Shown one piece after another: positions 1-61,286 of a stretch of 64,000 bases of DNA. The notes beneath the pieces were generated by a model. The model had not been told where the DNA came from and ran no database searches. It saw only the letters and a program-made list of their open reading frames with translations. This stretch comes from a virus, in the IMG/VR virus record IMGVR_UViG_3300045988_037736, positions 37,472 through 101,471 of that record. One strand, given 5' to 3'. The stretch's first letter is position 1. Each line of letters opens with the position of its first letter. Both the position numbers and the translations under genes were made by a program.

Positions 1-3000
1 CATCATTGACAAGGTCTATACTATATACCTTCTTACCATCTGCTACCTGGTCTGTAGCAGTGACAGAGTAATGCCATCCAGACTTTGAAGGAACATTCAT
101 GTAGTTACTTATTTGATTCTCAATAGTATTAGCCATTGAGTTAAGTAACTTTTCAGTATCACCTAAAGGTACTACTTGACCACTAGAATCTCTTGTGAAA
201 CTCATCTCCTCATCTGAGAAAGTCTCAATGAAGTTAGCTATAGTCTTGGCAGCTCTTCTGGTTCTACTGTTAAAGTTGATAAGTCCATCTACACTGTCTC
301 TTACTTGGGAAACAGTCTGTCCTTCCTTGTTCTGAGTTCTTTGTACTGGAGCAATAAAGATGTCTATGGGCTGTGTTCCACCATTCAGTTTGTCTTGATG
401 GAATACAATCTTCTTTCTATTGTCTCCCACCTTAACTATACCAAGTCTCTTTAAGAAATTCCTCTTGGCTTTTTGATAGCCCATTGGAGTTCCCTTATCC
501 TGTTCACTAAGGTCATTCTGTCCAACATCAAGTACATTATTATTCTCCTGTCCTCTTCTACTTGAGTCAAAGCTGGTTGCAGCTACAATAGGCTTAAGTA
601 GTTTGGTTACAACAGGAGAACCATCAGTATTCTTTACAAGGGATGTGCCAGTATTGCCTACTGCAAGGCTCCTTATAGGAGCCATGTTCTTGCTACCTGG
701 ACTATATTCAACTCCTGTAGCAGACATTACACTAACTGGTTGGAAGTGCTTATCCTGACCATCAACATTGATAGTTATTGGACCATTAGAAGATTCAACA
801 ACTGCAATGATAGGTAGGTCATTTTCAGTATATCCAAAGCCCTTAGATTCCATGTTGCTCTTAACCTCATCTGTAAGTGCATCATCTGTAATGAACATCA
901 CTTCAGAATCTCTAGTAAGAACTCCATCTCTTAGGGCATCCTCAATACCATACTTATCATAGTACCTTACTATAGGAGTATCAGGATGAGATTGCCTCAG
1001 ATAAGCTATATTCATACTGGTAATCATACCAGATTCTGGATTACCAACAATGAACTGATAGTTCATCTTCCTTGCTTGAGTTCTGATTGCTCTTCTTCTC
1101 TTATCAAAGAATGGAGATACAGGAGCATCTACCCTAGGAGAAGGAGTATCAATCTTCTTCTCATCTGACTGAGATTTAAGAACCTTAGCTACAACATGTC
1201 TTAGAAGGTCAGGTACTTGAGTTTCATTAGCTTCTGCTCTACCATCCATAGCATTTGCTCTTGCAGTAATAGCATCTGCAAACTCTTGTACAGTGTCAAA
1301 GCTATTGGCAGACAGTCCTTCTATAAGAGCCTTTACCTGCTCCTTTGCTTCAGCAGTAAATGAAGGTGCATTCTCTGCAACTCTTAAAGCTACTTCAGCG
1401 GCTTTACCAACCTCCTCATTGCTATTTTCAATGAATGTGTCTATAACAGAACTAGGTTGGGTTACTTCAATAGGAGTTTCTACAGGAGTAACAGGAGTTT
1501 CAACTTCACCCTGCTCAACCATATCAGATACTGTAGGACTTCCAACTCTTTCACCATCTTCAGTAATATGTCCTGCTTCAGGGGTACTACCTCCAATGTC
1601 AAATATAGTTGGACCAGATGGAGTAGGGTCAGGAATTGCAGCTGGCTCTGAGGCTTCAACAGGAGTTTCAGTTGGAACAACTTCCTCATTATTAAGGTCT
1701 CTTTGTTCTCTTTCTGAGTTATACCTGCCCATTATATCTCTATAGGTTTGAATGGTCTCTTCTATAGAGTTATAGCCTGTAATCTGCCCTTCAATAGGAG
1801 CCTTCTCATTTGCTCTTGCAAGATGCTGTTCAAAGTAAAGATTAACTTCTCCATCCTCAGCAGCATCCCTATCATAGTCAAGTAGCATTTCAGCACCTGC
1901 TTCAACATCAGTTACATCAACTCCACTATTACTTAGATAGTCAAGAGTAGCTGCAAAAACATCAGCTCTTGGGTCATTCTCTTCAAAGACTCCATTCCTT
2001 TCAGCCCAATCATAAATCTCTGACTTTCTTTCATTCTCTCTAGAGTATCTTTCAAACATATCTCTAGCTTCCTGAGGGAAATCATACCATTTACCCTTGT
2101 AAGACTGATTGGTAAGCATATCTTCTACAGCAGCTATTTCAGCTTCATCCCCTCTATTATAAATATCATCAAGTCTTTCTGAGAATTGCCAATAGTTACC
2201 ATTAGTTGCTATATCAAGGAGTTCCTCATTTTTCTTCTGTAGCATTCTCTGTTGTGCTTGATGTTTAACCTTTGCCACATACCTATTGAGGGCTTTAGGG
2301 CTATACATAAGAGCAAACTGAGAGTTCATAGCAGCTCTATAGTCTCTTTCAACTCTATTCCTATCTGCAATCTTCTTGGTAAAGTCTTGATGTATAGAAG
2401 TACCTACACTATTAACTTTATCAATTTCAGCTTGCTGTTCCTGACTATATCTATCTCTATGCTTTGGGTCAAGCATAAAGGCTCTATCACTTGCAGACAG
2501 AGACATAATCTCAGAAGCAGAAAGAACTGTAGTATCTACAGGGTCATTATATGTAACACCATCCCTCTCTACTGCCTGATGCTGAGCATTGAAACTGTAG
2601 TCTTCCTGAGCAGACTTTATAGACTTGATGTTTCTATCAAGTTCTCTAGCATAGCTTTCAGCCATAGCAAGAGTAGCTTGGTCTTCCTGTGAAAGAGAAC
2701 CTCTCTTCTGCTCTCTCTTCATCTCTCTTACAACTTGGTCAAGTTCAGACTTCTGTTCTTCAAGTTTAGAGAGTTCAGTTACAGCATTACTTAGTGAGCC
2801 AAACCTTGCTATAAGTCTCCTTCCTTTATTATTGAGAGCTGAGCTTGGAGTAGCATCTTCCTGTGAGTTAAGTTCAGTTGTTACCTCAGCTATTTCTTCA
2901 TCAAGTTGACCTATCCTCTTCTTATAGTCCTCAATAACTACCTTATTAAATACCATACTTGCCTTAACATCCTGGTCAATATTCTCTCCAAATATCTTCT

Positions 3001-5526
3001 CAATAGACCTGGTTTCTTTTGAAACCATATCCATCATGTCAAGCATTTCATTGGCATTTCTCTGTATAGTCTGAAGGGCTTCCTCTCTACTTATGTTCTG
3101 AGTTCTGTTCTGAGCTGATGCCATGAACTGTTCAACAGCCTTTGATTCCTCTGACTCAGGGTCTTGCAGATTCTGAGCATCAAAGTTTGCCCTTGCCTGT
3201 AGGTTAGCCATAACAGCTTCATGATAACCAGTACCTTCAAGGTCATTAAGAGTTATAATGTTACTAAACATTTGACCAACTCTTGCATCTCTTGCAGCCT
3301 TTTCATCATTACTTTCTATAGCCTCTTGATATTGAGTAAGCCATTCAGCAGTACCTCCTGCATTAAATAATGCTCTCTGCATACTTTCATCAGAGAAGTA
3401 GGTATTAAAGTGTTCAGCCATCTTCTCCCTCTGCTGATTGACAGCATTGATTTCAGTATTTGAGAATAAAGGAGTAAAGGCACTTCTCCAAGTAATACCC
3501 TTTGCAGTCATATTACCATTAGCACCTTGTTTCATACCAATGTTAGGTCCACCCATTGCAGTGGATAAAGCACCATAGACACCACTCTTTATAGCATCAA
3601 AGGATATAGCTGTATTACCTGCTGCTTGTAGACCTGCTGCAAAGGATTGCCAGAAGTCATTCTGAGCTGCTGTAGCTCCAGGGTTTGCACCATATTTATT
3701 GTCAATATACTGTTGCATTTTGTCTTCAGCATATGCCTGACCAAATGCACTAGATATATCCTGTGTGTACTCTTCAAAGCCTTCACCTAAAGCCTCCTTA
3801 AGCCTACCCTTAAAGGCTTGACCCTTAGTCATCTGTCTTGCTTGAGCTACCCATCTATCTCCCTGTCTTGCTATATTAACTGCATCTCCTACAGAGTTAT
3901 TTCCTCCTATACCAATCTTCCTAAGAGCATTCTGAACTCTTGGAGCTTGCTGACCTGCCTGCCATGTAGCATTGACCATACCATTTATAACAGAGTTAGT
4001 CCAAAAGTCATAGTACATAGCTGTGTTGGCACTTTCCTCGGCAGCTTGTCTATCTGCTGCCATATCAGCAGCATACTTTCCTTCAAACTGTGCTCTAGCT
4101 TCAGGGTTGGACTTTAAGTAGTCTGCTTGTTCCTGAGACATATTATGCTCTCTAGCATAGGCATCAATATCAGCATCTACCTTAGAAGCATATCTATTCT
4201 GAATATCTGTTTCAAGACCTTTCAGAGTTTCCTGTTTGGTCATAGCAGCATTCATGCCACCTTCAACTGTGCCTACTGCACCTGGAACAAGAAGATTTCC
4301 TATGTTCCTTGCCTTAGTCACTCCTCTTAGGAAGGATACTCCTTTTGCTGAAGCATTAAGAGTCTTTCCTCCCATAGCTACTTTTCCTAGCCAAGCAGCT
4401 CCTTTAGTAGCTGCATTAACAGCAGCAGAGCTACCAAATGAGAGGATAGTAGAGGCAGCAGTAAAACCATACTGACCAAATAACTCAAAGGGTGTATTAG
4501 CTGAAAATAAGGAGTTCTGTTGCTCAACAGTATTAAAGATAGGATTGTCAGATAGTCCAAGACTCTCCAATCTCTCTTGCTCCGATGGTGACCATGAGTT
4601 AGTAGTTGCAACCCTGTCACCATATCTAGTTACAGCATTATCAATTACATTCTCAAGCCATGACTCATCATCTTCAAGACCTATACCTACAGCACCACCT
4701 ATCATACCAGCAGCTCTGATAATCATACCAGCAGCACTGTCAATAAACTGAGCACCAGAGTTCCATGTTTTTTCAAGGAATGACTGATTGTTTGCTACTG
4801 TATTTTGATAGTAGTTACCAAGAGCCTTAGCAGCAAACTGACCTCCACCAACTGCTTCATTAGCAAGATAGGAGGCAAGAACCTGCTTTCTCTCCTCTGT
4901 AGACATTGATAGCTTATCTGTACCATTATACTCCTTATACATTGGAGAAATTTCTCCTGAGAAAGAATCAAGGTCAGTCAGGTACCTTTCTAGAGTCTCT
5001 GAGTCTAGGGCATTAAGCTGGTTATAGTAGGTATCATATAGTTGGGCAGACTTATTCTCAAGATAGGAAAAAGCCTGCTCCCTCATAGTATCTCCTCCTG
5101 TTAACTTAGCATCAATTAGGGCATACTTGTAATCAGGGTCAAACAGGAACTTCCACACAGAAGTGGAAGATTCCTGTAAATCACTCCTAGCATCAAGGTC
5201 AGATGCTAGAGCCTTCTTTGCTACATAGTCATCTCTCTGTCCTTTCGTAAGAGAGCTTCTGCTGTTGAATATCTGTTGGTCTTCTTCACTGTTACTATTG
5301 CCAAATATATCCATGAATACTGTGTTCCTAAAGTAGTTATCTTTTTGAACATCATCCATTCCTTGAATTTCTCTAGCATACTGCTTCTCCCATTCAGCCC
5401 TATCATCTGCACTAAGACCGGTCAGTCCCGAAAAGTAGGACTGATTATACCTTTGCTGTAGAGTCTGTTGTGACTTCTCTGAAGGAAGAGCAAACATTCC
5501 AGTGGGACCACCCGCTAATATAGGCA
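1..5526 (-). CDS. Giant virion/tail-associated protein (5' partial; >1840 codons), read with in-frame TAG codons taken as sense
   Basis: Start ATG at ~5526 (MPILAGGPTGMFALPSEKSQQ...). The frame stays open to the window edge except for repeated in-frame TAG codons, which is why the ORF track shows no long ORF here. Continuous protein-like translation with TAG=Q. Function unknown. Confidence 0.55.
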
Positions 5527-5550: not shown

Positions 5551-6939
5551 TTACATACCACTAGATGCATCATCATCTGCTACTGTAGCAGGGGTTGATG
5601 AGCTACTCACCTTAGGAACAAGCCAGAAGTGGTCATCTACAGTTGTCTGTGTCTTCACAGCAATCTCTATCTCATTTACATCATAGCCAGTTCCTGCCAA
5701 TCTTCTCCTTACATACTGTTGTTGAGTAGGACTCAACTGACTAAATTGTATATATTGGACATCTCCTGGGATAACATAACCTTCTTTATCCTCCTTATCC
5801 CCTCTAGAGTCAGGATTAGAAGCTTGTGCATTATCTGCTCTCCAGTGAATGTTACCTAATGGCTTTCTTTGCGCTTTAGCTTTTGCAACTTCAGCAGCTG
5901 TTGGAGTAGGTGTTGGAGTAGGTGTTGTAGATTTCCATGTTACTCCATCAGACTGTAAAATTTCAGTCCATTGCAGCTTACCATTACTATAGAATTTAGT
6001 CTTGCCATCAGCAGAAATATAATAAGGTTTAGCTCCTGAAGCAATACTATCCTTCTCCTTAGCATACTCAAACTGGTCTCTTTGTAGCTGTACTGAGGCT
6101 GCTTGATTAGCAAGAGACTGTCTTTGTGCAGCATTGATATACTCGCCATTCTCAGTAAACTGATAGGTAGGCTTAGCAAGACCTGCATACATACCAGTAG
6201 TAACACTACTTAGAACTTGCTGTCTTGCAGCATCTCCCCAATCAGCAACATTGGCAAGTTCATCATCCATTATCTGTCTGAACCCTTGTAGCTTTGTTCT
6301 AAGAGCTTCTGATATATTTGGATTATTAAGCTGGTCATTTACTACAGCATAGAACATCTCAGGACTCATGCCATTCTGCTGAGTTATCTGATATTTCTGA
6401 CCACCAAGAACTGTCTTAAATTCAGGGTCACTGAATAATGACTTACCTAATGCTTCTGCTTTTGCAGATGTTCTTGCAAGTATATCCTTACCACTTACAT
6501 AATCCTCACTTACTGTCTTTCCATGTAAGAAATCATCAAGGGAGAGATTCTCAACCTTGAATATAGCTGAGTTATCTCTTGCCCTTGTATCTCTCCTATA
6601 TTTTATAGCTTCCTGTCTGGCAGCATCTGCTCTTGCAATAGGAGTAATCTCCTTTGCATATCTTCTTTTGAGACCAAGGAGCTGCCTTCTGTTAGCCATT
6701 GTCATTCCTCTACTGAAGTCATCAGTAACAGTTTCTAAATCCTTAGCATATCTACTAAACATTGCATAGGCTTCAGGACTATTCTCCTGTGTTGCAATAT
6801 CTCTGAATGCCTCAGTCTGAGTTGCAAGATTTGCATACTGCTCTTCAGCTTCATTATAAGCTTTGGTGTAATCCTCTAGAGGCTTTACCAGCTGCTCATA
6901 TGTAAAAGGATTAAACCTACTATTTACAACTATATTCAT
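5551..6939 (-). CDS. Hypothetical structural protein (462 aa) with TPTPTPTPT linker
   Basis: Intact ORF in the track; Pro/Thr linker; sits between recoded virion genes. Confidence 0.6.
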   Translation of the reverse strand: MNIVVNSRFNPFTYEQLVKPLEDYTKAYNEAEEQYANLATQTEAFRDIATQENSPEAYAMFSRYAKDLETVTDDFSRGMTMANRRQLLGLKRRYAKEITPIARADAARQEAIKYRRDTRARDNSAIFKVENLSLDDFLHGKTVSEDYVSGKDILARTSAKAEALGKSLFSDPEFKTVLGGQKYQITQQNGMSPEMFYAVVNDQLNNPNISEALRTKLQGFRQIMDDELANVADWGDAARQQVLSSVTTGMYAGLAKPTYQFTENGEYINAAQRQSLANQAASVQLQRDQFEYAKEKDSIASGAKPYYISADGKTKFYSNGKLQWTEILQSDGVTWKSTTPTPTPTPTAAEVAKAKAQRKPLGNIHWRADNAQASNPDSRGDKEDKEGYVIPGDVQYIQFSQLSPTQQQYVRRRLAGTGYDVNEIEIAVKTQTTVDDHFWLVPKVSSSSTPATVADDDASSGM

Positions 6940-6942
6940 ATG

Positions 6943-9633
6943 TTAGAATGTTAAACCTCTTTTCTTTCTTTTAATCTTACCACCATAAGCTTCCTTTTGA
7001 ACAGGAGCATAAACTCCATGTCTACTAGCCCATGTTCTCCATTTTCTATCAACTTTCTCCCTACCAATATCTCCAAGAGAACTGAAGATGTTTGATAAGT
7101 TATCAGAGATAGCTTGTTCTCTTGCAAGTCTAGCTCTTGACCTTATATCAGCAGCAGCCATTGTACCTCTTAATGAGAAGTCTCTAGCTCTTGATAATGC
7201 TTCTTGGTTGGCTATATCAGCTTGCAGGAATCCTTGGGAGTTCTGAATATTTGTACCTCTATTGAACTCTTCAACTTGATTCCTTTGAGCAAGGTTATAT
7301 TCTTCAGCCTGTCTTGCTAAAGCACCAAGCTGGTTTAGATAGTTATTATCAGCAGCAAGAATGCCTGCCATTGCAGTGGCTCTGTTACCTCCTGAAGTAT
7401 TTAGTAGAGACCTTCTTGAGGCACCTGCCTCTGCATTCATCTTGTTAATGTAGTAATCCCTATCAAATGGTCTATAAGTTAGGTAGTTACCAATAGGTCT
7501 ATACCTTACAGGTCTGTAAGCACCTTTACCACTGCTTGCTTCAAGTATGGCTGAGACATCACCATCATCAGGCTTTGTAAACAATGAAGTTCCAAGACCT
7601 ATGGCAGAGCCTAAGATAGGCATATACCTCATCCAATTATCATAGTTGGGGTATTCACCTCCATTATCAGTAAGGTCAGGGGCTTTCTCATCAGTAGGAG
7701 CTACAGCAGGTCTTTCCTTATAGAATAGGTCTGTATAATCTGTATCTCCTTCACTACTTGTTCCTGTCCTTACATACTGATATGTTCCAGTTGTTGGGTC
7801 ATAGTCAGGAATAAGTAGGTCTTCCAAAGGAGTGCCACTAGCATCTGTTCTTCCTGTAAGATACATCCTCTTACCAGTCTTTCTTGGAGCTACTGGAACT
7901 GGACTACCTGCAAGGTCTATTCCTGCGTGCATACCACCCCAACTCTTGTCAGCTGTCCTTGAAGAGAAGATGTCTTTGGTAAGACCCTCTAGAGTAAGAG
8001 GCACATATCCTCTTCTTCCTTCATTATACCTATTAACTGATTCAACATACCTAGGTAGCCATTGATTTACCTCATCACTTCCCCAGTTATTGATGACATA
8101 GTTCCTTCTTGTCATAAATGGAGAGTTATCTCCATACATAATATCCCAGTCAATAGAGCCATTTGACTTATAGGGATTGAATCCTTCTTGACCAAAAGTA
8201 AGACCTGGAGTAGAGTTATTATAATTGAGAGTCTGCATCCAGCTACCTGTTTCATACAGGTGACCTCCTCTCGCAAACTTTCTCTCTTCTTTTCTTTCCC
8301 TTACCTGCTCCTGTACTTCCATCAACTTAGACATGCTGTCTATCATTCCTGCCCTACTTATAGGGTCATTAGGCCTCTCTTCAGATTCTTTGCTCATTTG
8401 AATAGCAGCATCTGCAAAGGTGAGAGGTTTTGTTCCTCTTAGTTTATATTTCTTTCTTACTGCTTTTGGAACTCTTAGTCTGTTACTAAATACATAATCA
8501 TTGAAGATAACTTCTCCCTCTTCTACAAGGTTAGGAATGCCTTCAGCATCCATTCCCATAGGAACTCCTTCATTAGGGTTTTCTTCATGTGTACCTCCAT
8601 TACCCACAAGAACAAGTCCTGTATCAAAGTCAGCTCCATGTGTCATAAGGTCTCCTCCAAAGGCATGATGCCACTTAGCAGCGTTCTAAGCAAATATAGC
8701 TCTCTTTCTAGTTAAAGGATTTTTACTATGGGTTAATTCCTCTGTAGTCTTTCCTGTTCTCTTCTTAGTAGCATTGAACTTACCTCTATTCTCTGGGTTA
8801 ATATGTATTCCTCCACCTTCTGCAAAGTACAATGGACCTCCATATGAGGCTATGTTTCTAAGTATATCCCTCTTCCTAGTCTATCCTATATTATACTGTG
8901 CATTTTCTAAAGAAGAACTAACATATTGCCTAGCAGTATCAGCTCTTTTGCTCATATCCTAATATAAATCATCTATATCATGACTAAATGCACCCTAACT
9001 GCCTAAATCATCATGATTAAAGTATCCAACTGTTGGAGCAGTAGCCATCTCCTAAGCTAAAGCATCATAATCAGTAGCACTTGATTTAAACTGTCCAGCC
9101 TGGGATATTTGATTATTTAAAGAACTTATAAGTTTTTCATTTCTTTCAGAACCAAATAAGTTATTAGTAACTCCTCCAAGTAGCTAACTTGCTCCCATTA
9201 CTATACCCCCAACCATTGGGTTTACAGACATTAAGGCTCCACCTACAGTTGAGCCTATACTACTAATTCCATTTCCTACTGCACTAGACCTTTTTCCTCC
9301 AATTACATTACCTACAATTGAACCAGTTAAGGCACTTCCTAGTCCTATACCCTGTTTGCCCAATTGAGTAAGTCCTAAGGATGGATTAGTAGTTCCAGAT
9401 GGTGGAAGAGGAAGGGTTGCTGAAGCAGCAGTTGGTTGAGTAGTTTTAGTAAGAGCTTGCAGCCCTGTTGATATAGCTTCTCCAGGCATAGTTTCTCTAA
9501 TACCAGGCATAGAAAAAGCATCATCCATACCTGGTATTCCAGCTAGATAATCAGGAGTACCTCCCCATGCAAAATAATTATTCCTCCCAAAAAGGAGTTT
9601 ATTTGTTCTTTTTTTAATAAGTTTCTTTGCCAT
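6943..9633 (-). CDS. Hypothetical virion protein (~897 codons) with several in-frame TAG codons
   Basis: ORFs 9184..9633 and 6943..8646 are in the same frame (top coordinate mod 3 = 0). Codon-by-codon reading of 8647-9183 shows only TAG interruptions (at ~8686, 8881, 8959, 8995, 9052, 9184) and no TAA/TGA. Ends at TAA 6943. Confidence 0.55.
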
Positions 9634-36302: not shown

Positions 36303-39300
36303 TTACTGTATATACCCTTGGGAGTAATTCCTTTGGAAGAAAGAATCATTGCCTAAGTATGAACTACTGACTTCCTCCTGTGCCTTAGCATTAAGATTAT
36401 CTCTATACAGTATAATCTTCTCTTGTCTATACAGCATAACCATACCTAATGCCCTGATTCTATCCACATTAAGTTCAGGAGTGTAGGAAATTAACTCTTC
36501 AAGTAATGCTCTATTTCTTAGAGAATAGAGCCTTGGAATATTGACCTCTTTCTCTTCTCCATCCTCCTTTATTATAGTTGGAACTGGCTGAAGTAGCCAA
36601 TCCCTTATCAGGTTATTAGCATAATTGTTGATAGTAGCATTCGCATTGATACCTTTTGCATTTGAGCCAAAGGCAGAATACTTAATCATCTGTTTGTCTC
36701 TTAAATATTCAGGAGTATCTGCCAGTAGGTGTGTGCATTCCATTCTGCTAAAGTAACCATACAGGCCCTTCTTATTGGATTCATACATGCACTTGGCATT
36801 ATAGAATAGACACAGCATTCTTACTATCTCAAAGTTATCATCTGCAAATGCCTGCCTACCAGTGTATTCTGCTACAATTCTGTCAGTAAACAGGTCAAGT
36901 ACAAAGGTTGAAGAAAGAGAAGAAGACTCTGCCTAATCATTATCCACAGGGTCATGGCCTATAATATATCTCATATTGAAATCATCCCCATTTGCTTGTT
37001 TCTCAGGCATTTCAAATATCTCAATAGCACCTACTGTTGAATTGTCAACTCCATACTTTCTGATAGGCACATCATTACCTATTCTAAACTCTACCTTATT
37101 ACCACTTGCTAGGGCAAGATTACCTATGTAAACATCATCAAAAGCATGAGGGTCTGAGTCAAGTTGAGCCAATCTCTCAGTAAGAGCTACTGTAGGAAAG
37201 TAGGCAGCCTTCACTTTAATGATAGCTTCAGCTGGTGTAATTGGGTCCTCGGCAATAACTCTTAATACTGACTTAGGGTCAGCAGAATATTTAGCTTTGT
37301 GTCTTGCCAACAGAATTTCTATGAGAGCCTTTGTTACATCAGAAACACCATCCTTGTTGTAACATCCTGCCCTATTTACATAAGAAGGAAAGAAAAATCC
37401 AAAGGTAGGCTTTCCTTGCTTAGGTCTGTCATAGACATTCTCAATAGCCAGAATATTGTAACCATCTGGATTGTAAAGAAGAGTTTTTGCCGAACTGAAG
37501 TCTGACTCATCCTCAGCAGCAGTATTATGAGTTACTATATTGTTAGCCAAGTAGGTATGACTTAATCCAGCAGTTAAATTATATACTTCTTGTTCACCTA
37601 TCTCTTCTACAGAAGTAACTTTGTGAACTATTATATCCTCTGGATATTTTTGAGCCTTCATACTCGGATTGCTATTATAATAGTCCATTATCCTTTTAAG
37701 GCAATCTCTCTTGTGCGGAACAAGAAGTTGAAGCACACCACACACTCTTGTACAATTATGTCTCCCTGATATAGATAGAGTAAACCAAGAATTTCTATCT
37801 TTCCTATCAGAACATAGTTTTGGCTTAGTCTCCACAATAGTGCCAACTACTCCAAATTTTCTCCACAGTACTTTAACTTGCTCTAATATTTTCCTATTGC
37901 TTTGAGTTAAAGATATATATCCGTCTCTATTAAAGCTTATACTACCATCAGTATCATATAATCCAGATAGCAATAGTGAGGTATCATCTCTTGTAAGAGT
38001 CTAATAGTTGATAGGAAGCCTTTTATTGGATTTTACTTGCCCCTAAATACCTAATTCTCTTAATTTATTACAAATACCTTTAATTCTTATATCCTCGTAT
38101 ATTTTTCCTTTCTTGGTAATATGAGTAGCAGATAATGACCATTCATATCTATGCTTTACATAGTCTAAAAGCTCTTTATCCTCAGAACTATACTTGGGGG
38201 ATTGCCTTAATCCATAAGAACCATCTCCAATAAGCATACCTACTAATCTAGGGTCAAACATGGTATCTGTCCCAAATATTGGAACTTCCCTACTCTCTAT
38301 AATTCTATCTCCTACACTTAAAGCTCCAGCATTTTTGAATACTTCTTCATAATACCTTATAGACCCATTATGATTCATTCTTTGTTTCTGAGTAAGAATT
38401 GGATGGTCTGTAGAGCATCTAAGTTCATTTCCATTACTCAGTTTAATAAGTACACATGGTTTTTTAGCAATACTTATAGAACTCATTATAGGTTCTTTGG
38501 TAATCCCTCTTGTGAGGTGAATATTAGGTTCAGTACCTGACTCAAAGGAGTCTGTAAATCCTATGATACCATCCTCTCTCTTTAAATCCTCTATATTGAT
38601 ATTCCTGCCATCTAATGTCCATACCTTAGTACCAGCACATACACAACCTACAAGGTACATTGTAGCAAATGTATAGTCACCATCTTCTACAGACTTTCTT
38701 GTGATGTCATACAGGGATAGAAGTCCCTTAAATGAACCCATCTCCTCGAATAGAATCCAACCTCTCTTACCTCTTAACTTCTCTGAGTCATCCTTTGCAG
38801 AAACAGCAAGCACCTGATTCAATGACCCACTTTCAATACCAAACTCATCCTTGTAGCCCATCTGCCATGCCATCTCATTAGGAGAGTTCTTTAACATGAG
38901 CCTAGGGAATGGAGTATTTTTGAAGGAGAAGTTAATTCCAGGTTTGAACTTAGAGAGTGTGCCATCCTTACTGTCACTAAGATACTCTTTCTGATAAGCA
39001 GTAAGTACAGTAATAACCCTCCTCTTTACTTCAGTAGATTCACCAAGTATAAGGTTGTGAGACATTATACTTGCAAGACTATATGACTTTGCACAATTAT
39101 GAGTAGTTATAAAGTCCCCTACTAAATAACAGGAGTCTTTAGAGTCTACAGTAACACATTTACAAGGAGATACCCCAGCATACTCAATATTGACTATGGC
39201 AGTTTTGTTCTTTCTTGATAAAGCATTGGTGCTACTATAATGTACACCACTCTTCTTCCTTGGCAAATTAAACAGTTCTTCTCCACCATATACTGCTATT

Positions 39301-44518: not shown

Positions 44519-44852
44519 TTTCCTAAAGATTACTCAGGATTAATAAGTTTATTAAGTTCTTCTTTAAAAGTTTTGAGCCACTCTTTGTCTTGGTTGTTGG
44601 GGCTATTAAGAATAATTTTAGTCTGTGTTAGCACCATCCTAGCAATAGGGTGTGGTATCTTTACCTGTTCCATAATTATATTTTTTTTTATTTTCTAACA
44701 CTTATTTCATTTAATTTATCATAAAAATCAAGAACAAACTGTTCATCCTGCAACAGTGAGTTACTTACCTCTTTGTCAATCTGCTCTAGCTAGAGCATTA
44801 CATTGGACATAAACCATTTTAAAGCTTCCTTATTCATTGTGATTAAAGTTAG

Positions 44853-44924
44853 TCGCCCCACTCTGGCTCGAACAGAGACCAAAGGATTTAGAGTCCTCTG
44901 TGCTAACCATTACACCATGAGGCA
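44853..44924 (-). tRNA. Amber suppressor tRNA, anticodon CTA (reads UAG), tRNA-Gln-derived
   Basis: TGCCTCATGGTGTAATGGTTAGCACAGAGGACTCTAAATCCTTTGGTCTCTGTTCGAGCCAGAGTGGGGCGA. Anticodon stem GAGGA/TCCTT, loop C-T-CTA-A-A. The D-arm TGGTGTAATGGTYAGCACA is near-identical to tRNA-Gln(TTG) at 48934..49005. Confidence 0.75.
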
Positions 44925-48929: not shown

Positions 48930-48933
48930 ATAG

Positions 48934-49005
48934 TTGCCACTAAAGGACTTGAACCCTTACACTCAGAACCAAAATCTGATGTGCTGACCATTACACCAAG
49001 TGGCA
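48934..49005 (-). tRNA. tRNA-Gln (TTG)
   Basis: Anticodon stem TCAGA/TCTGA, loop TTTTGGT; body nearly identical to the CTA suppressor. Confidence 0.65.
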
Positions 49006-55798: not shown

Positions 55799-55872
55799 GC
55801 CCTCATAGCTCATCAGGATAGAGCAACAGTTTCCTAAACTGTAGGTGGAAGGTTCGAGTCCTTCTGGGGGTA
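55799..55872 (+). tRNA. tRNA-Arg (CCT)
   Basis: GCCCTCA-TA-GCTC-ATCAGGATA-GAGC-A-ACAGT-TTCCTAA-ACTGT-AGGTG-GAAGG-TTCGAGT-CCTTC-TGGGGGT-A. Confidence 0.7.
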
Positions 55873-56135
55873 CTAAACAATTAAAGTAAGAAGGAAAATG
55901 AAAACAGAAACAATGGAGAAAGCAATACTGATTTTTCAGTGCATAGCAATTACTGTAGCCAGCCTATTCTATTTGATAGGTATGACACTTGATGCCATAT
56001 ATCTAGTAGCATTAGCAATATACGTAAAGAAGTGATGCAAATGGTTCCATAGCTCAAATGGATAGAGCAACAGACTTAAGATACTTTAACTCTAAGGATT
56101 TCATAGTATAGAAATTTATTACTAACTTTGCATAA

Positions 56136-56208
56136 CTCCCCTTAGTTCAGCGGATAGTAACAATGGTCTTCTAAACCATAAACCCCAGTTCGAGTCTGGG
56201 AGGGGAGA
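56136..56208 (+). tRNA. tRNA-Arg (TCT)
   Basis: CTCCCCT-TA-GTT-CAGCGGATAGT-AAC-A-ATGGT-CTTCTAA-ACCAT-AAAC-CCCAG-TTCGAGT-CTGGG-AGGGGAG-A. Confidence 0.7.
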
Positions 56209-56228
56209 CTAAAATAAATTTATATATT

Positions 56229-56645
56229 ATGAATCCAAAGAGAAGAAGTAATTGTATCTGCGTAAATTGTGGTGATGAATTTTATCCAGCATATAATATG
56301 TCTGGAAAGTATTGTTCAAATAAATGCCAGATGGAATACCAATCCAAGCAAAAATACCAAAGATATTTACAACATCCCGAAGAGTATGAAGGACAGAGTA
56401 ATATGTTTTGGGTAAAGAAACATATCCTAAAAGAACAAGAACATAAATGTTCTATTTGTGGATGTGTTGATACTTGGAATAATAAACCATTAGTATTTAT
56501 ACTTGACCACATTGATGGTCATGCTAACAACAATATTAGAACTAATCTTAGACTTGTTTGCCCTAATTGTGACTCACAGTTAGACACATACAAAAGCAAG
56601 AATAAGAATAGTGATAGAATTTATCATCATAATCATCACAGATAA
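56229..56645 (+). CDS. HNH homing endonuclease
   Basis: CxxC...CxxC N-terminus and HNH motif ...CSICGC...LDHIDGHANNNIRTNLRLVCPNCD; the TAA stop abuts or overlaps the start of the tRNA 3' half. Confidence 0.8.
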   Translation: MNPKRRSNCICVNCGDEFYPAYNMSGKYCSNKCQMEYQSKQKYQRYLQHPEEYEGQSNMFWVKKHILKEQEHKCSICGCVDTWNNKPLVFILDHIDGHANNNIRTNLRLVCPNCDSQLDTYKSKNKNSDRIYHHNHHR

Positions 56646-56882
56646 ATCTGTAGGTTGTGAGTTCGAGTCTCACTGGAATCACTATTATTATTAGATGGTC
56701 ATGACCTTCGACCGAAAAAAGGCAGTACCCTGCATACTCTAATGTAGGCTTCTGAATAGGATAAGTTGTGCCGAGTTGAAACCATAAAGAAGAGAAACTA
56801 AAGGTTGGACAAATGAATGAGGCTAAAAACAAAACTTGCTTCGGAGTTTTGTTATAAATACATTTTTGAAGAAGCAACATCT

Positions 56883-57275
56883 GGGGCATATCTGGTATTT
56901 GATTGCAAATTATTAGGTAAGAGAACATGCAAGAGGGCATACTCTATAAATAGCAAGTAAACTTAGATGCAGAAGTTGATGAAACTCCTGTGAGAATGGC
57001 TGCATAAGCTTGACTCTGAGCAGCACTTGCTTGGAAACAGAAAGGTGCAAAAGTCTGAAAGGAAACTAAGACTGGCAGTCCGAGGTCCTAGTGCTTAATT
57101 AGCTCTGATATGCACGGAGAAGGTAAGCCAACTTTTTCTCTGTTTATGGACAATAAAACAGAGTGGTGGAAAGACAACTAGTCAACCCTGTGAAGAAAAC
57201 ACTCCAAATTGAAAAGCATGTACAATTCTCTTATGTGAAGTTTGTAAGACGAGGGTTCGACTCCCTCATGCTCCA
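56883..57275 (+). ncRNA. ssrA: tmRNA (ssrA-like), ~393 nt, standard (non-permuted) form
   Basis: 5' GGGGCATATCTGGTATTTGATTGC resembles the E. coli 5' end GGGGCTGATTCTGGATTCGAC. The 3' end GACGAGGGTTCGACTCCCTCATGCTCCA resembles GACGCGGGTTCAACTCCCGCCAGCTCCA. The terminal strands pair 7/7, including G3:U70, with discriminator A. Internal frame GCA GAA GTT GAT GAA ACT CCT GTG AGA ATG GCT GCA TAA (AEVDETPVRMAA*) at 56969..57007, ~86 nt from the 5' end, preceded by AAATAG. Confidence 0.6.
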
Positions 57276-57299
57276 CTAATTAAAACCCAAGATTAACAA

Positions 57300-57914
57300 A
57301 TGGAAACAAGAAATGTAACACTGACTCTTGACAAGGCTAAAGAGTTCTATAACAGTGGCAATGATGCTCTCAGAGAGGTAGCATTGCAAGCCTTCACAGA
57401 GAATGAACTCAAGGAAGTACACTACACTGACATCAAGACCTTTGAGGATGCTTGCAAGGCTCTTGGTCTTAGTGAAGGCAATGTAAACTATGACATAGAG
57501 AGAATAGAAGAGGCAGAGTGTGGACTTGGCAAGCACCTTATAGCCATCTACAAACTGGACATCATCCGCAAGGCTCTTAATGGAGGTTGGGAGCCTAAAC
57601 TCACCAAGGGAGACATCTACTATAGCTGGGTAAGGTTCTATCTTCCTAACAAGAAACCTTCTGACAAGAAGACCATTGCAACACTCAAAGCTGATGGTCA
57701 GAAGTACCTTCTGGTTTGCAGTTGTGGTGGCTACGGGTCCTGCGCTGGTCTCGGTTTCTTCGACTCTGGGTGTGGGTGTGGTAACTCGTATGCTTTTTTG
57801 GGCTTGCTCTGTTGCAAAAGCAGAGAGATAGCTCAGTATATGAGTACACAGTTCGGTGAATACATCTTTGATGCTTGCTATGCTCAGCATCTAGGTGCAT
57901 ATGAGTGGGTATGA
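57300..57914 (+). CDS. Hypothetical protein (204 aa) with Cys/Gly-rich C-terminal region
   Basis: Intact ORF; LLVCSCGGYGSCAGLGFFDSGCGCGNSY. Confidence 0.45.
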   Translation: METRNVTLTLDKAKEFYNSGNDALREVALQAFTENELKEVHYTDIKTFEDACKALGLSEGNVNYDIERIEEAECGLGKHLIAIYKLDIIRKALNGGWEPKLTKGDIYYSWVRFYLPNKKPSDKKTIATLKADGQKYLLVCSCGGYGSCAGLGFFDSGCGCGNSYAFLGLLCCKSREIAQYMSTQFGEYIFDACYAQHLGAYEWV

Positions 57915-60666: not shown

Positions 60667-60747
60667 GGAGGAGCAGCTCAAATAGTGGAAGAGCATCATC
60701 TGAATTAATAAGGATGAAGAGTGCAGGTTCAAGTCCTGTCTCCCCCA
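60667..60747 (+). other. Atypical tRNA with canonical acceptor, D- and T-arms but a 12-nt anticodon loop (TGAATTAATAAG)
   Basis: GGAGGAG-CA-GCTC-AAATAGTGGAA-GAGC-A-TCATC-TGAATTAATAAG-GATGA-AGAGT-GCAGG-TTCAAGT-CCTGT-CTCCCCC-A. Confidence 0.4.
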
Positions 60748-61149: not shown

Positions 61150-61286
61150 AGGGTGTTCGTCTAGTGGTTAGGACGGAAGTTTATTCTATCTAAGTAACAG
61201 TTTGTTACTTATAATAAGTCAATAGCTTTATAGTGTTTAGAATTTATCGGGTTCTTCAGACAGAGGTTCAATTCCTCTACACCCTA
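61150..61286 (+). other. Split tRNA-like gene: 5' half (acceptor AGGGTGT + D-arm + GAAG) ... ~70-nt insert ... 3' half (CTTC + T-arm + ACACCCT-A)
   Basis: Acceptor strands complementary 7/7; the insert contains the hairpin AAGTAAC-agttt-GTTACTT followed by ATAATAAG (a motif variant). Confidence 0.35.

Follow-up and report, generated by a model that had tools for sequence, protein, structure and literature searches.

A Transfer-Messenger RNA Gene with a Twelve-Residue Tag Reading Frame in a crAss-Like Phage

Among the viruses of the human gut, crAss-like phages belong to the most abundant, and their takeover of translation in Bacteroides is poorly understood. Here we describe a transfer-messenger RNA (tmRNA; ssrA-like) gene in a 64,000-nucleotide stretch of such a phage, positions 37,472 to 101,471 of IMG/VR record IMGVR_UViG_3300045988_037736 (hereafter the window, whose own numbering is used unless another genome is named). 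Our results leave hardly any doubt that positions 56883 to 57275 of the plus strand are a genuine, selectively maintained tmRNA gene, and this gene adds a long-tag variant to the crAss-like phage tmRNAs, a lineage known from annotation rather than from functional study. From sequence comparison we further propose, at a probability of about 0.8, that this one-piece tmRNA of a crAss-like (Crassvirales) phage would work by standard trans-translation with host factors. The original prediction, made from the letters of the window alone, was of a full-length phage tmRNA with alanine identity and its own tag frame; the Rfam covariance model RF00023, ARAGORN, covariation among 23 homologues and the phage context all bear it out.

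The Infernal search that had been proposed as a check matched RF00023 at 56883-57278 with 70.2 bits (E = 2.8e-25), above the gathering score of 47 bits and over model positions 1 to 374 of 374, although the alignment across the middle of the RNA has low posterior probability. No other family competes: in an Rfam scan of positions 56600 to 57500, the best non-tmRNA match had an E value of 0.064, and a group I intron or another RNA family, which the prediction had named as what would speak against it, was ruled out there, with all non-tmRNA families at E >= 0.06. ARAGORN at its 95% threshold (-ps) called 56883-57276 with the tag AEVDETPVRMAA* and a TAA stop. Both programs place the 5' half before the 3' half, the standard gene order, and a two-piece permuted tmRNA was rejected, as model RF04321 gave 20.4 bits against a gathering score of 47. 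Folding of the single sequence yields a mild signal (z = -2.1 relative to shuffles), with the acceptor stem, P2 and the T-arm retained in the centroid structure. The discriminator A57275 is followed by CTA, so CCA is not encoded in the gene; C57276 could be used as the first C, and the remaining bases are not encoded. The features of the RNA are as follows (PK, pseudoknot).

56883 to 57275, plus strand: tmRNA (ssrA-like) gene, 393 nt including the discriminator A, by RF00023 and ARAGORN
56883 to 56889, plus strand: 5' strand of the acceptor stem, GGGGCAU, in which G3 (56885) pairs with the U70-equivalent T57272
56890 to 56902, plus strand: D-loop analogue, AUCUGGUAUUUGA, aligned at high posterior probability with the conserved 5' part of RF00023
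56903 to 56930, plus strand: 5' strands of P2 (P2a, 56903-56911; P2b, 56917-56924; P2c, 56925-56930)
56932 to 56954, plus strand: PK1 region, with the hairpin AGAG (56932-56935)/CUCU (56942-56945) in the centroid fold
56964 to 56968, plus strand: context before the resume codon, UAGAU, with U at -5 and A at -4
56969 to 57007, plus strand: tag frame, GCA GAA GTT GAT GAA ACT CCT GTG AGA ATG GCT GCA TAA, read as AEVDETPVRMAA*
57018 to 57048, plus strand: PK2-like knot, GAGCA (57018-57022)/UGCUU (57028-57032) and GCAC (57023-57026)/GUGC (57045-57048)
57052 to 57089, plus strand: lineage-specific pseudoknot-like module, with the helix AGUCU (57052-57056)/AGACU (57069-57073) in the minimum free energy fold
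57138 to 57163, plus strand: hairpin CUCUGUU/AACAGAG, directly 5' of and overlapping the near-invariant GUGGUGG (57163-57169)
57173 to 57202, plus strand: PK4-like 3' region, with the hairpins GAC (57173-57175)/GUC (57181-57183) and GUG (57190-57192)/CAC (57200-57202)
57216 to 57247, plus strand: 3' strands of P2 (P2c, 57216-57221; P2b, 57227-57234; P2a, 57239-57247)
57251 to 57267, plus strand: T-arm, with the stem GAGGG (57251-57255)/CCCUC (57263-57267) and the loop UUCGACU
57268 to 57275, plus strand: 3' strand of the acceptor stem, AUGCUCC (57268-57274), and discriminator A57275

The gene belongs to a family whose structure appears to be under selection. A 28-nt block downstream of the tag (CAGCACTTGCTTNGAAACAGAAAGGTGC) was found in 26 crAss-like viral contigs of IMG/VR, mostly of about 100 kb, and all 26 carry a homologous element of 292 to 444 nt. 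ARAGORN at its default setting calls a tmRNA in 19 of these contigs, and the 12 homologues tested against RF00023 all passed, with 52.7 to 85.1 bits. Covariation was counted on an alignment of 23 distinct sequences, over a named structure that comprises the acceptor stem, P2a to P2c, the T-arm, the PK2 stems and two downstream hairpins. Standard pairs fill 98.2% of the cells of this structure, compared with 36 to 48% when the partners are slid; 24 of the 54 pairs are changed on both sides, and 0 of 500 shuffles reach any of the observed pairing measures. The tmRNA architecture is kept by compensatory changes across the phage family.

In the tRNA-like domain, the 12 pairs are 100% paired in all 23 homologues, and 5 of them show compensatory changes. 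The pairing of 5' GGGGCAT with 3' ATGCTCC at 7 of 7 positions, with G:U as the third pair and A as the discriminator, is present as predicted. All 7 pairs of the acceptor stem are formed throughout the alignment, 3 of them with compensatory changes (CAU/AUG, CUG/CAG and AUG/CAU, with CUA/UAG also present among homologues), while G3:U70 is a G:U pair in 23 of 23 sequences and the discriminator is A in every one. The alanine identity elements are therefore present in the phage tmRNA, charging itself being a prediction. The T-arm is likewise 100% paired over its 5 pairs, 2 of which have compensatory changes, and its stem occurs as GAGGG/CCCUC, AAGGG/CCCUU, AGGGG/CCCCU, UUGGG/CCCAA and UCGGG/CCCGA. 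The canonical-looking ends noted at the outset, ATCTGGTATTTGA after the 5' acceptor strand and GACGAGGGTTCGACTCCC before the 3' strand, are both found, and the GG and UUUGA of the D-loop analogue are conserved across the family. P2, which replaces the anticodon arm and whose helices are kept in the single-sequence centroid structure, has 23 pairs that are 96.6 to 100% paired, with 12 changed on both sides.

The downstream hairpin at 57138-57163 shows changes on both sides at 6 of its 7 pairs (UUGCAU/AUGCAA, CCCUGUU/AAUAGGG and CCUUGUU/AACAAGG), the GAC/GUC hairpin of the 3' region is 97% paired with one change from A:U to U:A, and the GUG/CAC hairpin reads GAG/CUC in homologue L008 and GUGG/CCAC or GUAG/CUAC in the short-tag group described below. 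In the module at 57052-57089, the loop AGGA (57060-57063) pairs with UCCU (57086-57089), and between the window and L008 this complementarity survives three changes on both sides (A:U/G:C, G:C/U:A and A:U/G:C). The module lies in an insert of about 90 nt that these two share and that is missing from the 302-nt members. Across the family, whole modules of 80 to 140 nt have been gained or lost in the stretch from the invariant PK2 block to the hairpin that precedes GUGGUGG, giving members of 439 to 444 nt (L006, L015, L024 and L027), 382 nt (L009 type) and 302 nt (L001 type). The tRNA-like domain, P2 and the tag remain constant, and the ARAGORN tag finder fails on the largest versions. The PK1 hairpin of most family members also differs from that of the window and covaries (GAUG/CAUC, GUUG/CAAC, GUAUG/CAUAC and GCUG/CGGC).

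Two alignment columns in PK1 of the short-tag family, 50 and 67, hold purines that covary perfectly as G/G or A/A in 21 sequences (GCAGAGAC...GGAGAGAC versus GCAAAGAC...GGAAAGAC). The two sites form a direct repeat and are not complementary, no third column associated with them was found in the alignment, and the sequence of the window differs here. This could be a non-canonical purine-purine contact or an accident of phylogeny.

The tag frame has the features of a tmRNA message: it lacks a start codon and opens with a resume codon, it has a stop in frame, and its peptide ends in a hydrophobic residue followed by Ala-Ala. The predicted in-frame GCA lies at position 87 of the element (56969-56971) and opens the frame for AEVDETPVRMAA, which closes with TAA at 57005-57007. 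The motif AAATAG, which had been described as preceding the resume codon, does occur, at 56948-56953, but lies 16 nt upstream; the bases directly before GCA are UUAGAU. Their U at -5 and A at -4 are what we take to be the equivalents of U85 and A86 in Escherichia coli. The family contexts are UAAAU followed by GCA and UAACU followed by GAC or GGC (hosts have UAACU followed by GGC, and similar), and UA(A/G)NN precedes the resume codon in all family members except L011.

Two kinds of tag occur in the family. The short tags are DNTYRVAA (most members), DNTYKVAA, GNTYRIAA, GNTYRMAA and GEVNTTSYRMAA, whereas the 12-residue tag AEVDETPVRMAA is shared by the window, its sister strain L016 (contig IMGVR_UViG_3300045988_064014, 98.8 kb) and L023, with the variant AEVDYTPVRMAA in L008. 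The L023 tag differs from that of the window by 2 synonymous changes, and the L008 tag differs by 3 synonymous changes and one replaced codon, from E to Y; the long-tag group thus has 5 synonymous third-position changes and 1 replaced codon overall. Because the sample is small, selection at the codon level on the tag frame is suggested rather than proven. Replacements across the family are conservative (V/I/M and R/K), and the tag stops are TAA, with one TGA and never TAG.

If this tmRNA works by standard trans-translation, the following course is expected. The transcript would be trimmed, given CCA by the host enzyme and charged with alanine by the host alanyl-tRNA synthetase (AlaRS). Together with host SmpB and EF-Tu, it would enter ribosomes stalled at the 3' ends of broken or stop-less mRNAs, where translation would switch to the GCA resume codon, AEVDETPVRMAA would be added to the nascent chain and the ribosome would be freed at UAA. 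The tagged chains would probably be handed to host proteases, since the tag ending (a hydrophobic residue, Ala, Ala) resembles the ...ALAA of the host. The likely benefit would be that ribosomes are kept available during infection, alongside the phage tRNAs, about 25 in number.

The dependence on host SmpB in this scheme, like that on host AlaRS and the CCA-adding enzyme, is inferred from the absence of a detectable SmpB gene in the window. With an E. coli SmpB sequence as the query (confirmed by Pfam PF01668, E = 1.5e-57), the best match within the 64 kb had an E value of 2.6 by tblastn and 3.2 by phmmer, the latter run on every open frame, translated with Gln at TAG; about 35 kb of the phage genome lies outside the window. 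The same query matches 68 records in the phage collection. The matches listed come from prophage edges, Lak megaphages and other huge phages, with no Crassvirales genome among them. At the Bacteroidota host ssrA loci examined, smpB is not adjacent to ssrA.

Several points, of which the negative SmpB searches are one, weigh against the proposed function. It presupposes that the phage RNA fits host SmpB, and the expression, RNA ends, charging and tagging of the tmRNA are predictions from sequence, while ...VRMAA is at most a putative degron in Bacteroides. The PK1 region of the window is unlike that of most relatives, and its second stem, GC-UA (56937-56941, with one bulged A) with UAGC (56951-56954), is possible though weak; the region resembles that of L011, in which a clean H-type knot (AGAG/CUCU and UGCAUU/AAUGCA) can be drawn. 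The PK2-like block, although its complementarity is perfect and identical in every relative retrieved, is uninformative for covariation, because it was the search key and its columns are invariant. ARAGORN at its default threshold misses the window gene, so that the check by this program held at the 95% threshold and failed at the default one. Finally, a broken copy in a cultured relative, Kehishuvirus sp. 'tikkala,' implies that the gene can be lost.

That copy is a short-tag homologue at positions 3001 to 3303 of the 'tikkala' genome (L003; OQ198717), a phage cultured on Bacteroides cellulosilyticus. Its tag region, DNTYRVAA, is intact, the disruption lying in the T-stem and in the 3' strand of the acceptor (GGGTTCGAGTCCAACCATCCCCA). 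The annotation gives two hypothetical coding sequences here, and neither ARAGORN nor Rfam calls a tmRNA at 3001-3303. The copy is either decaying or locally rearranged.

An alternative that shares much of this evidence is that the outcome of trans-translation is reprogrammed, with the phage tmRNA competing for SmpB and stalled ribosomes and appending a phage-specific tag that alters the fate of the chain, for example, by shifting protease preference, slowing degradation or protecting phage proteins, or with the RNA merely titrating host trans-translation. Hosts were sampled through the degenerate tag GE(T/N)NYALAA, which brought up more than 120 Bacteroidota genomes; in these, ARAGORN called 101 tmRNAs of 363 to 425 nt, 89 of which encode GENNYALAA. 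Relative to the host ...YALAA, all phage tags deviate in the same way, with Arg or Lys at -4 and Val, Ile or Met at -3 (YRVAA, YRIAA, YRMAA, YKVAA and VRMAA); this conservation of phage-specific tags suggests selection on the tag sequence itself, and with no phage SmpB found, the RNA must use that of the host. However, the tags keep the terminal Ala-Ala and the preceding hydrophobic residue, which in E. coli are the main ClpX determinants, and extra rescue capacity is a simpler reading that explains the same data. We therefore regard a reprogrammed outcome as improbable. Slightly less doubtful, though still unlikely, is the broader suggestion that the lineage is kept because its tag matters (Arg/Lys at -4, Val/Ile/Met at -3) or because the RNA outcompetes host tmRNA for SmpB; if so, extra rescue in recoded strains would absorb ribosomes that read through host TAG stops to mRNA ends.

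The variable length of the family (292 to 444 nt), the weak second stem of PK1, the ARAGORN score below the default threshold and the disrupted copy of 'tikkala' with its hypothetical coding sequences would also be expected if the gene were a captured ssrA copy that is unused and persists by linkage to the tRNA cluster. Against such a decaying passenger, every core helix is upheld by compensatory changes in the 23 sequences, the G3:U70 pair, discriminator and U-5 A-4 context are kept, and the changes in the tag are mostly synonymous. Moreover, the tmRNA of the sister strain shows 0 differences from that of the window over 393 positions, while the spacer just upstream is 78.5% identical and the sequence just downstream differs by an indel of about 345 nt. 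The two strains also agree fully in the tRNA-Arg genes and the HNH gene further upstream, and so mosaic recombination could contribute to the identity of the tmRNA. Taken together, we consider a decaying passenger very unlikely. The indel consists of about 345 nt in the sister strain, between the tmRNA 3' end and the next open reading frame (ORF), with no counterpart at 57276-57299 of the window.

tmRNA genes are common integration targets of temperate elements, and several phage records carry smpB or ssrA at prophage edges, so the element might be a phage attachment site (attP) overlapping an ssrA-like sequence for insertion into the host tmRNA gene. This is highly implausible, as the gene is full length rather than a 3' fragment, is at most 66% identical overall to any of the 101 Bacteroidota tmRNAs (the best local match is 92.9% over the last 28 nt) and occupies the same internal position beside tRNA-Arg genes in phage genomes of about 100 kb. 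A protein-coding signal on the minus strand, which had also been named as an argument against a tmRNA, can be dismissed almost entirely: an open frame exists (56563-56940, 125 amino acids, or 56548-57279 with TAG read through), but it has no PHROG match, the neighboring genes and tRNAs are on the plus strand, and the variation among relatives is that of an RNA, with substitutions that preserve the helices and insertions or deletions of 80 to 140 nt inside the frame.

A different question is whether the tmRNA is an accessory of stop codon recoding, since the original prediction set it beside TAG recoding as a notable combination. The window and its sister strain are recoded at TAG. Reading through TAG raises the ORF coverage of the minus-strand late genes at 12 to 34 kb from 0.55 to 0.88, compared with 0.58 for TGA and 0.69 for TAA, and the sister strain, which has the identical tmRNA, is 95.7% identical in its structural region. 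The window encodes about 25 tRNAs, including a suppressor with a CTA anticodon at 44852-44924 (minus strand; labeled 'Pyl' by ARAGORN), which shares its 5' half (acceptor 5' strand and D-arm) with the phage tRNA-Gln(ttg) at 48933-49005 (minus strand). In alignments with non-recoded relatives, the residue most often opposite an in-frame TAG of the window is Gln (11 of 36 in L207). TAG is probably read as Gln in this phage, as judged from the likeness of the suppressor to tRNA-Gln and from these alignments.

The tmRNA nevertheless occurs regardless of recoding. The contig of L008/L207, with the same long-tag type of tmRNA, has 1 in-frame TAG in 4,856 codons, and reading through TAG brings it no gain; it shares with the window about 85% DNA identity and a major head protein that is 99% identical at the protein level. 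Three contigs with a DNTYRVAA tmRNA also use the standard code by ORF coverage tests on their structural regions. No suppressor tRNA is present in the related tmRNA loci, and L007 and L029, whose tRNA arrays are homologous, have none. Conversely, 57 viral contigs, many of them about 180 kb long, carry the suppressor sequence pattern; only 1 of these is a tmRNA contig, and 443 kb of suppressor loci contain no tmRNA. The tests of suppressor loci, tmRNA loci and ORF coverage were all negative, and a tie between the two is not supported. TAG recoding itself differs between close relatives (window positions 6943-40829, minus strand, versus L207 and L208), and its signature was seen in only 5 of 62 related structural loci (L208, L246, L270, L275 and the type of the window).

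The surroundings of the gene are those of a crAss-like phage. The proteins of the window include a major head protein, portal, large terminase and endolysin, and its DNA relatives in the phage collection are Crassvirales only (cr106_1, cr128_1, cr125_1 and Kehishuvirus). Its conserved upstream neighbors, of which nearly every related contig has one or both on the same strand ahead of the tmRNA, are the following.

55799 to 56209, plus strand: tRNA-Arg(cct) at 55799-55873 and tRNA-Arg(tct) at 56136-56209

Between tRNA-Arg(tct) and the tmRNA is an ORF for an HNH homing endonuclease (56229-56645, plus strand; PHROG E = 3.6e-21), which is 100% identical in the sister strain and 86.6% identical in L008. 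Rfam also reports tRNA matches that ARAGORN does not call, at 60667-60747 and 61150-61286 (plus strand) in the window and at 6157-7027 (minus strand) in L008. The length of one of them, 137 nt, suggests a tRNA with an insertion or an intron, and at comparable places in L008, L007, L022 and L025 ARAGORN gives 'tRNA-???' with 4-base or 2-base anticodon loops. A scan for promoters and terminators, with a tool that has no Bacteroides or crAss promoters, gave no signal above that of shuffled sequence.

A whole crAss-like lineage thus carries a structurally intact tmRNA beside its tRNA genes, with phage-specific tags and, to date, no SmpB found. Some copies escape ARAGORN at its default setting, and the apparently defective copy of one cultured isolate is annotated as hypothetical proteins. 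Experimenters gain a defined RNA and a peptide tag to look for by mass spectrometry, and the tempting idea that the tmRNA is a recoding accessory is corrected.

The original prediction regarded a tmRNA in such a phage as unusual. This view does not hold: a feature 'transfer-messenger RNA, SsrA' is present in the GenBank records of the crAss-like phages cr106_1 and cr125_1, 19 of 26 relatives are called by default, and tmRNAs of huge phages have been published (PMC7162821). Annotation pipelines routinely count phage tmRNAs (e.g., PMC12291355); in the literature searched, we found no discussion of crAss-like phage tmRNAs or their tags, only mentions by such pipelines. The huge phages, including the Lak phages of Prevotella, resemble the window phage in having a rescue RNA alongside large tRNA sets, but their genomes exceed 200 kb and encode SmpB as well (Al-Shayeb et al. 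2020; PMC7162821), whereas crAss-like genomes are about 100 kb. Our own query likewise found SmpB in Lak and other huge phages and none in the window.

Compared with the tmRNAs of Bacteroidota hosts (RF00023), that of the phage has the same architecture, alanine identity elements and ...AA tag ending and belongs to a similar size class, yet global identity to the 101 host sequences does not exceed 66%, with local similarity confined to the 3' tRNA-like part. The 28-nt phage block is absent from all 101 even with 6 mismatches allowed. Host tags are GENNYALAA or GETNYALAA, in contrast to DNTYRVAA, GNTYRIAA (one residue shorter than GENNYALAA) or the 12-residue type in phages. The pre-resume sequence ACAAUUAACU followed by GGC is common to hosts and short-tag phage tmRNAs, and that of Parabacteroides, ACAATTAACT followed by GGC, is the same as that of the short-tag phage tmRNAs; the window keeps only U-5 and A-4. 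From these sequence comparisons we infer an old capture of a Bacteroidota ssrA gene, followed by divergence within phages.

Within the phages, cr125_1 (NC_055900) is related to the window family: its acceptor strands, GGGGCAU/AUGCUCC, and its 31-nt 3' end are identical to those of the window, and its tag ends in ...YTRIAA and has the context UAACU followed by GGC. It differs in order, with the 3' tRNA-like piece about 165 nt upstream of the 5' piece. At 2782-3386 of cr125_1 (L002), default ARAGORN calls a circularly permuted tmRNA with the tag GNFYVTDYTRIAA, while no Rfam tmRNA model reaches threshold there. By eye, AGCAAUA in the coding piece can pair with UAUUGUU in the acceptor piece. A RAGATH-9 RNA (154 bits) abuts this gene, with a Hatchet ribozyme 1.4 kb upstream, and the gut contig L363 appears to have a similar permuted tmRNA, with the tag GNTSYVMDYTRLVA. 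Because Bacteroidota hosts have one-piece tmRNAs, the permutation may be an independent event inside the phage lineage; a pattern scan for permuted phage tmRNAs followed by ARAGORN gave, among the matches listed, many of the alphaproteobacterial or cyanobacterial type.

The closest annotated counterpart is that of cr106_1 (MT774378/NC_055871; Mahstovirus faecalis, Steigviridae), a homologous tmRNA with 74.3 bits to RF00023. It shares with the window gene the 5' tRNA-like half, the 28-nt block, the P2 3' strand and the T-arm and lies at the same position just downstream of tRNA-Arg genes. The cr106_1 tmRNA is 302 nt long, with the 8-residue tag DNTYRVAA that starts with Asp, whereas that of the window is 393 nt long, with 12 residues starting with Ala, a different PK1 hairpin and the extra pseudoknot-like insert of about 90 nt; overall identity is 63%. 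Since tmRNAs are annotated in cr106_1 and reported for huge phages, the window does not represent a new kind of system. What is particular to its tmRNA is that it escapes default ARAGORN, has an altered PK1 region and encodes a longer, Ala-initiated tag.

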